Shown: positions 47,020-52,766, counted from the stretch's first letter. The stretch: DNA of 64,000 bases from Vulcanimicrobiota bacterium (GCA_963812135.1 CAWETU010000005.1:302469-366468); one strand, 5' to 3'. Notes: generated by a model not told the origin, from the letters alone. Numbers and translations: made by a program.

Positions 47020-47813
47020 TTATGCTTCGGGCACGACGCCGCGCACCGCCCAGGCACGCGCGCCGAATGAAAATGCCTCGTCGGGCTTCGAGCCGAGCAC
47101 GCGCTCGCGCAAACGTTGGCGCAGAACTTCTCGGCGTTCCGGCGTCAGGCTCGCGACATAACGGCCGCCAGGTCCTTGGCCGCCCAGAAACGGCGACCAG
47201 TAATCGTCGAACGACGCGAAATCGGTTGAGATCCAAAGCTCCTCGGCACGCACCTCTTGAAGCCCACCGGTCACGAACAGCTCGTGCATCGACTCTTTGG
47301 CGAAGGTCGGCTGGTTCTCTCCATCGGCTGTGGGATCTATCTCATCAACTACCGACCAGAACGTGCGCAGCATTTTCATGCCGCCGAAGTGGTCCCACAC
47401 CGCCGTCGCCACGACGCCACCGGGGCGGGTCACGCGACGCATCTCGCCGAGCCCTTTCGCCGGGTCCGGGATGAAGTTGAACACGAGCAGCGCAAGGCTG
47501 CGGTCAAAAGACTTATCCGGATACGGCAACGCTTGCGCATCGCCGACCGAAAAACTGATGCGCCCGGCATTTGGCCGGCTGCGCGCATACTCGACGAACG
47601 CGCCCGATGGATCGATGCCGGTGATCTCGGCGCTCGGTGCGGCGGTGGCGAGCGCCAAGGAGAGCGACCCGGTGCCGCAACCGACGTCGAGGAGACGCTC
47701 GCCGTCGCGCGCACCCGCGAAGGTGAGGAAGCCGGGCGCGAGGCGCGCGCTCCAGCGGCCGATGTACCGTTCGTACGCTTCGGGGACGGAGAACGTGCTC
47801 GAAAGGCTCTCCT

Positions 47814-47817
<4 letters not shown>
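47020..47817 (-). CDS. class I SAM-dependent methyltransferase
   Basis: LLDVGCGTG, GDAQALPY, EMRRVTRPGG. Confidence 0.88.
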
Positions 47818-49060
<1,243 letters not shown>

Positions 49061-49064
<4 letters not shown>

Positions 49065-49906
49065 TTGTCGTACTCGTAGAATCCGCGGCCGGACTTCTTG
49101 CCGAGATAGCCCGCCGCGACCATCTTCTTCAGCAGCGGGCACGGGCGGTACTTCGGATCGGAGAATCCGTCGTAGAGCACTTGCATGATCGCCAGGCACG
49201 TGTCGAGCCCGATGAAATCGGCAAGCTCGAGCGGCCCCATCGGATGGTTCATGCCGAGCTTCATGACGGTGTCGATCGCTTCAGGGCTGGCGACGCCTTC
49301 CATGTGAGCATAGATGGCTTCGTTGATCATCGGCATCAGCACGCGGTTGCTCACGAAGCCGGGAAAGTCGTTGACTTCGACGGGCGTCTTGCCGAGCTCC
49401 TCAGCGAGCCGTTTGGTGAAGCCGTACGTCTGATCCGACGTGGCGATGCCGCGAATGACCTCGACGAGCTTCATGACGGGCACGGGATTCATGAAGTGCA
49501 TGCCGATCACGCGGTCGGGGCGGCCGGTTGCGGCGCCGAGTTTAGTGATCGAGATGGATGACGTGTTGCTCGCGAGGATCGCCTGCGGTGGCGTGACCGC
49601 GTCGAGGCGTTTGAATAATCCGAGCTTGAGCGCCTCGTCTTCAGAGGCGGCTTCGATGGCGATGCTCACGTCGACGGGCGCGTTCAACCCGGGGTGGAAC
49701 TCGATGCGCGCCAACAACGCATCGGCGTCGGCGCGTTGCAGCTTGCCCTTCTCGACCATGCGAGCGAGGTTCTTCTCGATGGCCGTGCGGCCGCGCCGGT
49801 ATGCGGCTTCGTCAACGTCGTGCAGCAGCACGCGGTGGCCCGCGGCCGCACAGACGTGCGCGATCCCGGATCCCATCTGACCGGCACCGACGACCAGAAT
49901 CGTCAT
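49061..49906 (-). CDS. hbd: 3-hydroxybutyryl-CoA dehydrogenase
   Basis: [47 protein letters not shown]. Confidence 0.92.
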
Positions 49907-49922
49907 TCGTCGCATATACGCC

Positions 49923-49951
49923 AAAAAAGAAGGCCGCCATTTCTGGCGGCC
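49923..49951 (-). terminator. intrinsic terminator just upstream of hbd
   Basis: GGCCGCCA-GAAA-TGGCGGCC-TTCTTTTTT. Confidence 0.8.
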
Positions 49952-50145
49952 GTTTGCGATTCACTCGATGCGGCGCAATCTATACCAACCTACTGCTTCG
50001 TACCCATGGAGGCCGGACTTTCCGGGAACCTGCGCTCTCCGGAGTCTCCGCAGACCCGGCCTCGGGGCCTCGCGCATCGAGCGAGCACCGCTCTCCGAGA
50101 ATAGCACCCGCTCTGCCGGGAGGACAAGCCTACGCGTGTTCGGGA
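49923..50145 (-). ncRNA. candidate structured RNA of unknown family
   Basis: Nested helices (49961-49972 with 50073-50084; 50009-50016 with 50056-50063; 50030-50034 with 50049-50053), repeated GGAGAGCG-like motifs, terminal terminator; no convincing ORF. Confidence 0.5.
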
Positions 50146-50177
50146 CTACGATATCACTTGTCCCGCATCGCGGGAAT

Positions 50178-50837
50178 TTATAAGATGATCACATACCCCC
50201 GCAAAACGGTCAATTTGAGGATAACCACGACCACCATGAGGACGAACCAGCCGATAGTCACGATCTCCGCGTTGAGGATGACCTTCTTATTGTAGGTGCC
50301 CTGCTGTTTGCTCGCGATCATCGGCCCTTTCCATGGGATGAAGCGGGGCACGAGCGTCGTGTACTCCGTGTAACGCATGCCGAACGCGTGCGCAAGGTGT
50401 TCTTCTTCTAGTGGGATGATCGCCGCGTAGACCGCGATGATGACGGCGAGCACGAAGACGAGCAACCAGAACGATTGGCCGAGCGGCACGCCGCCGGAAA
50501 GCGCCACCGTGAAGCCGATCGCGATCATCGCATTGCCGACGTACAGCGGATTGCGCATGAGGGCATAAGGCCCGGCGGTGACAAGCGCGGGTGCGGTGAC
50601 GACATCGGCGCGCGTCGTCGCGCCCGAGTAGCCCACGGCCCAGACGCGAAGCAGTTCGCCTAAGAATGCGATGGTGATGCCGACGGCGGCGCTGAACTCG
50701 CTGGGCTGCCCGAAGATGATCAGCGCGAGCGCGATGGGGAGCATCAGCAATCCGCGATAGCGGAAGACCGTCACGCGCCAGTCTTGGCCGCGCGCGGGGG
50801 TACGGGGTGGGGGTCCGGCCGGTTTCGGTTTATCCAT
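50178..50837 (-). CDS. isoprenylcysteine carboxylmethyltransferase / PEMT family membrane protein
   Basis: GELLRVWAVGY, LVTAGPYALMRNPLYVG, EEEHLAHAFG..Y..Y..LVPRFIP. Confidence 0.85.
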   Translation of the reverse strand: MDKPKPAGPPPRTPARGQDWRVTVFRYRGLLMLPIALALIIFGQPSEFSAAVGITIAFLGELLRVWAVGYSGATTRADVVTAPALVTAGPYALMRNPLYVGNAMIAIGFTVALSGGVPLGQSFWLLVFVLAVIIAVYAAIIPLEEEHLAHAFGMRYTEYTTLVPRFIPWKGPMIASKQQGTYNKKVILNAEIVTIGWFVLMVVVVILKLTVLRGYVIIL

Positions 50838-51789
50838 CTTCCTTTAGACAGTACTCATAGAGGTCGCGAAGCGTGCGCAGCAGCGGGATGGACGGCTGCC
50901 AGCCGGTATCGCGCGCCAGCTTGCCCGGGTCGCCGACGATGATCGGCGTGTCCACCGGCCGCATGCGCTCCGGATCCTGGCGCAACTCGACCGGCTGGCC
51001 TACCAGTTGGGTGAGCTCCTCGACGATCTCGCGCATGCTGACCGCCCGGCCGCTGCATACGTTGTAGACCGATCCGCTAGCGCCTTTGGCTCCCAGCAAC
51101 CGATATGCCGCAACGACATCGCGGACATCGAGAAAATCTCTCTGGGCGGACAGATTGCCGTGTCGCAGCACGGGAGCCTGCTTGCCGCGCGTGATATCGG
51201 CGCACTGTTTTGCGAATCCCGCGGCTGCAAAGGCGGTGCTCTGGCCTGGGCCAGTGTGGTTGAACGAGCGCGTGGCGACCACCCGGAGCCAGCCTGTCTG
51301 CGCGTATTGCATGGCGAGCACCTCGGCGGCCGCCTTGCTGCCCGCGTACGGATTGTTCGGCTGGATAGGCGCGCTCTCGTTCAGGGGCAACGCGCTCGGA
51401 TCCACCGCGCCGTAGATCTCCGCTGAGCCGACCGCCACGACGAGCGCGTCAGGCGCGTGCGCGCGGCACGCCTCGAGCACGTTGGCCGTGCCGATCACGT
51501 TCGTTTCGATCGTGCCCGCCGGGTCGCGCAGCGACTGGGCCACCGAAGCTTGCGCGGCGAGGTGATACACGACGTCGGGCATGGCTTCTTTGACGACTGC
51601 GTGGAGCGTATCGGGTTCGAGCAGCTCCGCGCTCGACCAACGGACTTGGGTGGCCTGGTCGGTCGGCAGCGTCGTGAGACGCGTGTGATCGCCCCGCGTC
51701 ATGCCACTGACATCGTCGCCGTGCTCGAGCAGTTCGCGGACAAGCCACTGCCCGACGAATCCATCGGCGCCCGTGACGAGCGAGCGCAC
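50830..51789 (-). CDS. NAD-dependent sugar reductase/epimerase (GDP-4-keto-6-deoxymannose reductase-like)
   Basis: LVTGADGFVG, HLAAQASV, PYAGSK, RSFNHTGPGQ, RDFLDVRDVV; downstream of gmd. Confidence 0.85.
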   Translation of the reverse strand: MRSLVTGADGFVGQWLVRELLEHGDDVSGMTRGDHTRLTTLPTDQATQVRWSSAELLEPDTLHAVVKEAMPDVVYHLAAQASVAQSLRDPAGTIETNVIGTANVLEACRAHAPDALVVAVGSAEIYGAVDPSALPLNESAPIQPNNPYAGSKAAAEVLAMQYAQTGWLRVVATRSFNHTGPGQSTAFAAAGFAKQCADITRGKQAPVLRHGNLSAQRDFLDVRDVVAAYRLLGAKGASGSVYNVCSGRAVSMREIVEELTQLVGQPVELRQDPERMRPVDTPIIVGDPGKLARDTGWQPSIPLLRTLRDLYEYCLKEDG

Positions 51790-51791
51790 GA

Positions 51792-52766
<975 letters not shown>

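Follow-up and report, generated by a model that had tools for sequence, protein, structure and literature searches.

Terminator-type riboswitches, for which SAM-I, FMN and TPP in Firmicutes serve here as references, share a common layout. A promoter-proximal domain is closed by a P1 helix made up from its 5' and 3' ends, unpaired nucleotides of the junction are conserved, a terminator directly follows P1, and the genes downstream belong to one metabolic theme. The same layout is found in an RNA element that precedes an acyl-CoA operon in a Vulcanimicrobiota genome and that was analyzed here within a stretch of 64,000 nt (the window, to which positions refer unless a contig is named). Unlike the references, the element matches no Rfam family, has no antiterminator of comparable stability and is confined to one bacterial family. 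The PyrR, TRAP and LicT/RAT attenuators are also alike, in that they use a leader terminator whose use depends on a factor at a conserved RNA site. The sites of these attenuators are short and overlap an antiterminator, whereas the domain described here is about 140 nt long and a linked regulator gene was not found.

By genomic context, the nearest described RNAs are the orphan sucC and sucA-II motifs of Proteobacteria (RF01759 and RF01758), candidate cis-regulatory RNAs of succinyl-CoA metabolism genes with no known ligand, both of which are listed in a table of PMC2864571. The operon investigated here likewise ends with sucC and sucD. However, those motifs belong to gamma-Proteobacteria/Pseudomonadales, the first gene here is thiolase or hbd rather than sucC, and there is no Rfam match at this locus. 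According to a 2022 review, CoA and its acyl derivatives have no validated riboswitch class, which the review counts as a conspicuous blind spot (PMC10043782). A full-text literature search returned no paper combining "Eremiobacterota" with "riboswitch" and, in the portions of the papers it exposed, none that relevantly links riboswitches with these genes.

The element is a real structured RNA outside every described Rfam family, and it is present as a single copy in its 2.79-Mb genome. It lies on the minus strand, where the sequence around the helices is as the earlier note described it, and its architecture is P1-P2-(P2b)-P3-junction-P4-P3'-(variable hairpins)-P2'-P1'-terminator (Table 1). 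On balance, we lean toward reading it as a new RNA family of one bacterial family, which forms the 5' leader of an acyl-CoA operon and acts in cis as an attenuator. In the window, hbd is followed in the operon by genes for an acyl-CoA dehydrogenase and a SAM methyltransferase and by sucC and sucD. The methyltransferase is a class I SAM-dependent enzyme (Methyltransf_11; 47020-47817, minus strand) encoded between the acyl-CoA dehydrogenase and sucC. Upstream of the element, the same strand carries genes for a GDP-mannose 4,6-dehydratase, an NAD-dependent epimerase/dehydratase and a PEMT/ICMT-like membrane methyltransferase (50178-52766).

Table 1. Positions of the leader features and of the first downstream gene in the window.
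Feature	Positions	Strand	Sequence or pairing	Remarks
hbd (3-hydroxyacyl-CoA dehydrogenase)	49061..49906	-		Pfam 3HCDH_N, 3HCDH; first gene of the operon
RNA proper (likely extent)	49923..50092	-		From predicted start (50092-50090) to end of terminator U-tract
Intrinsic terminator	49923..49951	-	GGCCGCCA-GAAA-UGGCGGCC (49951-49932), then UUCUUUUUU	
P1, 5' strand	50087..50091	-	GCGGU, pairs with AUCGC (49960-49956)	
P2, 5' strand	50073..50084	-	UCGCUCGAUGCG, pairs with CGCAUCGAGUGA (49972-49961)	12-bp closing helix of the earlier note
P3, 5' strand	50056..50063	-	GAGGCCGG, pairs with CCGGCCUC (50016-50009)	8-bp helix of the earlier note
P3-P4 junction	50044..50055	-	GUCUGCGGAGAC	Invariant columns
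P4 hairpin	50021..50043	-	UCCGG/CCGGA (50043-50039 with 50025-50021)	Covariation
P4 inner stem	50037-50034 with 50029-50026	-	GAGC/GUUC, GCAG loop	
Extended -10 (predicted)	50098..50106	-	TGC-TATTCT (TGnTAnnnT)	T, G, T, A and last T invariant
-35 box (predicted)	50122..50127	-	TTGTCC	TTG invariant; TTGNNN in all copies
Upstream region of fixed length	50128..50180	-		Invariant columns in a 23-sequence alignment

Of the 32 genomes of one Eremiobacterota/Vulcanimicrobiota family, 31 carry the element; a covariance model detected it in 29, and in two it was recognized by eye in divergent form (among the genomes used, G010, G013 and G016 are flagged as unpublished). Within the genus, BLAST recovered it from all six other genomes at 79-84% identity; when 300 nt of flanking coding sequence were included at either end, identity at these loci was only 72-78%. 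A covariance model built from eight copies (R1) gave strong, whole-model matches in 27 of the 29 genomes, with E-values of 1e-10 to 1e-87 and one copy cut at its 5' side by a contig end. The weak matches, in G008 and G023, represent a reduced 204-nt form at the same place. Neither R1 nor a core model of 56 positions (R2) detected the element in the two genomes of genus g8, whose divergent copy, located before thiolase, was identified by eye. In genome G018, which is 81% complete, there is no orthologous hbd contig and the element was not found.

Outside the family, R1 applied to 151 genomes of the class gave weak matches only (E 0.002-0.009, in 6 of 116 sister-family genomes), and R2 applied to 151 genomes of the phylum gave none in the 142 lying outside the family. 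In two sister-family genomes, a comparable leader before thl-hbd was not found. A pattern scan of metagenome contigs found 84 loci, 80 of which were scored with R1, and yielded 20 further copies. An exact 18-mer scan of 185,579 species genomes returned 40 loci; four carry the element, and all four belong to relatives.

Several measures show that the element folds as RNA. The minus-strand fold reaches -117.8 kcal/mol (z = -3.5; one of 200 shuffles does equally well), and the plus-strand fold is unremarkable (z = -1.8; 10 of 200 shuffles do equally well). In a model-fitted alignment of 30 copies, 86.7% of the cells pair, compared with 37-47% when the 3' partners are slid by one to three columns. 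Changes on both sides of the pair occur at 56 of 70 pairs, and none of 500 shuffles reaches the observed values. Since such an alignment is biased toward its model, two unbiased checks were made, one on a plain MAFFT alignment and one on alignment-free duplexes. In the MAFFT alignment of 24 copies, 92.1% of the cells of the core (P3, junction and P4) are paired versus 20-65% after sliding, and two-sided changes affect 6 of 18 pairs, among them GGCCGG/CCGGCC to GGUCGG/CCGACU, CCGG/CCGG to CAGG/CCUG and CCGG/CCGG to CCCC/GGGG. In the alignment-free comparison, a long duplex joins the segment that follows the -10 box to the one that precedes the terminator in 23/23 copies (-14.7 to -33.8 kcal/mol, median z = -2.4). 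Single duplex z values are modest and the RNA is GC-rich; in 8 of the 23 copies the duplex beats all 200 shuffles. More telling is that the duplex sequences are unrelated between genera (GCUCGAUGCG/CGCAUCGAGC, ACCCCGUCCG/CGGACGGGGU, CCCGCCGG/CCGGCGGG and UGACCUCGA/UCGAGGUCA). The structured RNA proposed in the earlier note has covarying homologues, with 29 genomes identified by model and covariation in two alignments, and a conserved structured domain with covariation is one of the features of riboswitches.

As a whole, pairing in P1 to P4 is maintained between genera whose sequences there are entirely different. In the model-fitted alignment, all six pairs of P1 (helix 4) change on both sides and 91% of its cells are paired; other genera have GCGGA/UCCGC, GGCAA/UUGC or UGCA/UGCA at this position. 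All ten pairs of P2 (helices 5 and 6) change on both sides, and the P2 sequence is wholly different in other genera, where the last three of the duplexes given above take its place. P2 contains one G-U pair and for this reason works only on the minus strand, as the earlier note had stated of its 12-bp closing helix; the 8-bp inner helix of the same note is P3. In the MAFFT alignment, which is not structure-fitted, 86% of the cells of P3 (helix 1) are paired and three pairs change on both sides, for example to GGUCGG/CCGACU. P4 (helix 3) has 96% of its cells paired in that alignment and three pairs that change on both sides (CAGG/CCUG in g4, CCCC/GGGG in g6). A CUGCG/CGCAG stem proposed in the earlier note did not hold up: it is drawable in this genus and is not kept elsewhere, where CGCC stands instead, and the conserved fold pairs UCCGG with CCGGA. 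Most genera outside this one have an extra hairpin, CUCGC/GCGAG, with a loop of variable length.

The inner 10 nt of the P3-P4 junction, UCUGCGGAGA, show no variation among the copies seen, the reduced and divergent ones included (L076, L077 and the g8 copies). The junction can be drawn as a hairpin of 3-4 bp with a GCGG loop, whose three pairs never vary, so that covariation is uninformative there. We propose the junction as a candidate site of effector recognition. The reduced elements (L076 and L077, from G023 and G008; locus positions 1501-1704) keep P2, UCUGCGGAGA and the terminator, have lost the TATCCTGC (-10) box together with P4, and still precede thiolase-hbd. The divergent g8 copies (L099 and L100, from G013 and G020; reverse-complemented) lie about 120-300 nt before thiolase. 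Their core reads CUCUGCGGAGAC or UUCUGCGGAGAU, P1-P2 is a longer, interrupted helix, and the terminator is present.

In agreement with the view of the earlier note that no known RNA family is represented, Rfam 15 gave no match at the gathering threshold in the whole 64-kb window. A permissive scan gave only seven matches, all with E of at least 1.3 and at most 15.7 bits (the best had 15.7 against a threshold of 93). We give almost no credence to the element being a divergent housekeeping RNA (6S or SRP) or, as the earlier note had suggested, a CsrA-sequestering sponge. Its size and single copy would suit such a role, and it shares with 6S RNA an own promoter and paired 5' and 3' ends, and with the CsrB/RsmZ sponges several GGA motifs in the copy of this genome. 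However, the genome has its own 6S RNA (RF00013; C1:381233-381414, 84.6 bits) and SRP RNA (C1:1601609-1601865, 71.8 bits) elsewhere, both above the Rfam cut-off. At the element, 6S gave no match, and neither RF00169 nor RF01854 matched in the permissive scan. Furthermore, the fold is branched, whereas 6S RNA is a rod with a central bubble, and the element is tied to one operon. As for the sponge, a search of this 98.4%-complete genome for csrA (PF02599) gave no match; among 14 control genomes, the gene was recovered from three (E. coli, B. subtilis and T. maritima). The three GG(C)AGAGCG repeats and four CGGA(G/A)A motifs listed in the earlier note are present, but the repeats are not conserved outside the genus, nor are three of the four motifs. 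The only conserved GGA is the one in UCUGCGGAGA; the others vary or sit in stems, mostly inside helices.

The earlier note had placed an RNA of about 220 nt in the interval 49923-50150, a size that now appears too large. A conserved promoter-like motif puts the likely start at about 50092 and the length of the RNA at about 170 nt, the remaining 5' part of the interval (50150 to about 50093) being more probably promoter DNA than RNA. More specifically, TTGNNN-17/18-TGnTAnnnT is present in 44/44 full-length copies (26/26 from genomes, 18/18 from metagenomes), with a spacer of 18 nt in 42 copies and 17 nt in two, and a free spacer sequence. In the same genome, tRNA and 6S promoters read TTGAAG-17-TGCTATAAT (tRNA-Asn), TTGAAT-17-TGCTACCGT (6S) and TTGACA-18-TATAAT. 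The -35 box of the leader resembles TTGAAG, TTGAAT and TTGACA, and its extended -10 has the same form as TGCTATAAT and TGCTACCGT. P1 starts 7-8 nt past the -10 box in all genera, and indels are common inside the RNA and almost absent from the 53 nt upstream of the -35 box. Due to the conserved motif and spacing, the likeness to tRNA and 6S promoters, the distance to P1 and the contrast in indels, we read 50127-50098 as a promoter with a predicted start at about 50092. Its sequence pattern is that of a sigma-70 promoter with an extended -10. A simple promoter scanner had passed over the extended -10, which matched 8 of 12 consensus positions at a threshold of 9.

Two groups of copies call for caution about this start. 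The reduced copies of two species (G008 and G023) have no -10 box, due to an 8-nt deletion, and no P4, and the two g8 copies have a weak -10. An alternative promoter, TTGACC-17-GATCAT (50213-50185), was rejected, as it lies inside the upstream coding region and its -10 is lost in a sister species. In the 6S gene (G000 C1:381163-381232), the promoter-like site TTGAAT-17-TGCTACCGT ends 30 nt before the Rfam match, which suggests that the 5' end of 6S RNA is processed in G000.

The conserved block starts 85 nt before P1, at the stop codon of the upstream gene, and extends to 50180, beyond the interval of the earlier note. Its first part begins at the TAA stop (50180-50178) of the PEMT/ICMT-like gene and holds an AAnAAT box, the inverted repeat TCCCGC (50175-50170)/GCGGGA (50166-50161), GGGAC and CGAACA (50142-50137). 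In 44/44 copies, AAnAAT, the inverted repeat (as TCCC-N7-GGGA), GGGAC and CGAACA stand at constant distances. In the same 44 copies the -35 box starts at element position 53 or 54, so that the 53 nt upstream of it are nearly without indels. We consider 50180-50128 to be probably transcription-factor sites phased with the promoter; that the RNA extends this far 5' is less likely. A long hairpin can be drawn in this region as well, with arms that vary from genus to genus. Pairwise duplexes exist in the upstream 85 nt of many genera, and RNAalifold found only a short UCCC/GGGA hairpin in common. An RNA domain is disfavored here because DNA sites would better account for the fixed length and the promoter pattern, and the 85 nt before P1 are probably promoter and operator DNA. 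In most other genera, GGGACA boxes are found another 40-50 nt upstream of the conserved block.

The fixed spacing and conserved boxes of these 85 nt are also what would be expected if the whole locus were a conserved DNA regulatory region of operators and promoter, followed by an ordinary terminator. This possibility appears very improbable. Past the -10 box, complementarity persists despite sequence change, there are many indels, and the G-U pairs form only on the minus strand. These features are signs of RNA structure and not of protein-binding DNA, and for this reason a DNA-only reading is disfavored.

Contigs from RNA libraries cover 49985-50182 with two mismatches, spanning the element and both its junctions; ends, strand and level are not readable from contigs, nor do uncovered parts carry information. 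Contig cover also extends 5' of the predicted start and bridges the upstream gene and the element, which may reflect earlier transcript starts, read-through from the upstream gene or DNA in the libraries. A terminator between the PEMT/ICMT-like gene and the element was not found in the window scan. Two contigs end at 49985, inside a variable stretch, and a processing site there was rejected. A leader peptide was rejected as well: a frame of 37 codons (AUG..UGA) is readable in this genome and is broken by 1-nt indels within the genus. The same indels, together with the single copy, argue against a coding or mobile element.

The earlier note left two roles for the RNA, a cis-regulatory leader of an acyl-CoA operon or a standalone sRNA, between which the constancy of the downstream genes bears. 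In all 27 genome copies with downstream sequence, the RNA directly precedes, on its own strand, either hbd (21 copies) or thiolase and then hbd (6 copies), within a constant thiolase/hbd/acyl-CoA dehydrogenase operon. The gene next to it is hbd in 20/20 metagenome copies and thiolase in both g8 copies. The hbd ATG (49906-49904), which is 16 nt past the U-tract here, as the earlier note had it, is aligned in all homologues; a TTG start inside the U-tract, taken from the ORF list, was rejected, since homologues align from the ATG at 49906. Where hbd directly follows the RNA, 16-70 nt separate the U-tract from the start codon, and 16-43 nt in most copies. There is no room for a second promoter in most copies, and the operon is therefore read through the terminator.

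In genera g3, g4 and g8 (loci L056-L058, L061, L076 and L077, and the g8 copies), thiolase separates the RNA from hbd; it is absent from the locus in the other genera. The sister family has thl-hbd without the RNA in the two genomes looked at, so that thiolase at the locus is probably ancestral. Apparently, thiolase was lost from the head of the operon and the leader was retained directly before the new first gene. The upstream neighbor is usually the PEMT/ICMT-like membrane methyltransferase; it is different in L065, an extra ORF is present in L071, and it lies about 250 nt further off in L100. Because gene order is broadly conserved in the family, constancy of context carries less weight here than it would in a comparison of phyla. 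It nevertheless favors a cis-acting leader over a free-standing sRNA. Like riboswitches, the element forms a 5' leader in cis, with a predicted start site, before functionally coherent genes.

A free-standing, trans-acting sRNA upstream of the operon, which would then be expressed by leakage through the terminator, seems to us unlikely, although it has to be taken seriously. The element comes with a promoter-like motif of its own and ends in a very strong terminator, an antiterminator was not found, and its paired 5' end and 3' hairpin with a U-tail are like those of stable sRNAs. Furthermore, the invariant single-stranded 10 nt could serve as a seed. In the g8 copies, about 100 nt lie between the terminator and thiolase, leaving space for a separate promoter. 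On the other hand, hbd begins 16-43 nt past the U-tract in most copies, which makes the RNA unavoidably the leader of the operon, and the RNA stands directly before the new first gene where thiolase is absent. The complement of the invariant 10-mer occurs three more times in the genome, versus about five estimated by chance (5.6 million positions over 4^10), and none of the three sites is at an obviously related gene. At one site (G000 C1:173725, minus strand), a hairpin CCAUU-UCUCCGCAGA-AUGG presents the exact complement in its loop, just before GGAGGUGAG and an ATG (product starting MAKK...); such 10-mers occur at about the chance level.

In the cis-acting leader that we favor, the terminator consists of eight pairs, seven of them G-C, with a loop of 4 nt and a following UUCUUUUUU, and was found in all copies. 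The stem is nearly invariant over all genera (helix 12: 100% paired). In this genome, GGCCGCC..GGCGGCC followed by a T-run occurs at this site alone, and the 28 perfect-hairpin terminators of the genome have many different stems, none used more than twice. That the terminator stem was kept while P1 and P2 diverged suggests a constraint beyond hairpin formation, such as an alternative pairing. A competitive antiterminator was not found: forbidding the 3' arm of the terminator costs 8.4-18.6 kcal/mol in 23/23 copies. Strands resembling GGCGG that are complementary to the 5' arm of the terminator are present at the 5' end of the RNA and in the 5' strand of P3. In 14 of 23 copies this P3 strand offers the arm its best partner, which in the rest lies elsewhere. 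Since P3 is a stable GC helix, a model in which the aptamer unfolds and an antiterminator forms does not fit. As terminator-free pairings are 8-19 kcal/mol weaker, and less stable everywhere, and P3 is stable, no convincing antiterminator can be named. Any switching would have to be kinetic or factor-dependent.

From this arrangement we infer termination by default and modulated read-through. Transcription would initiate at about 50092, from a sigma-70-type promoter with an extended -10. The first nucleotides pair about 130 nt downstream (P1 and P2) and close a domain made up of P3, the invariant junction UCUGCGGAGA and P4, and a strong intrinsic terminator follows 4-9 nt past P1. By default, polymerase would stop at the terminator and leave a transcript of about 170 nt, and expression of the operon would depend entirely on polymerases that continue beyond it. 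The passing fraction would be set by a putative effector recognized at the invariant junction, which could be a metabolite, making the element a riboswitch, or a protein.

The latter would involve attenuation of the PyrR, TRAP or LicT type or a modification of RNA polymerase (processive antitermination). An invariant stretch of 10 nt in an otherwise covarying RNA fits a sequence-specific protein site, and a factor-dependent mechanism would agree with the RNA-only antiterminator not being found. However, a gene for an RNA-binding regulator was not found in or beside the operon, and known protein-binding attenuator sites are smaller and less branched than this RNA. We consider a protein effector improbable.

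With regard to a metabolite, the element is an orphan riboswitch candidate, and proof of riboswitch status is not claimed. A specific and decidedly speculative proposal, which we rate as quite doubtful, is that the domain serves as an aptamer whose ligand is coenzyme A, an acyl-CoA thioester (acetoacetyl-, 3-hydroxybutyryl-, butyryl- or succinyl-CoA) or NADH, and that use of the terminator is decided kinetically rather than through a stable antiterminator. If true, this would be the first riboswitch class for a CoA compound.

The anatomy of promoter, leader and terminator is clear and can be tested in vitro with ordinary reagents. The orphan RNA is well supported and is placed exactly where a sensor of CoA would be useful, before genes for thiolase, hbd, acyl-CoA dehydrogenase and succinyl-CoA synthetase. 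Even with a protein effector, it would be, as far as our full-text searches reach, the first structured regulatory RNA described for this uncultured soil phylum.
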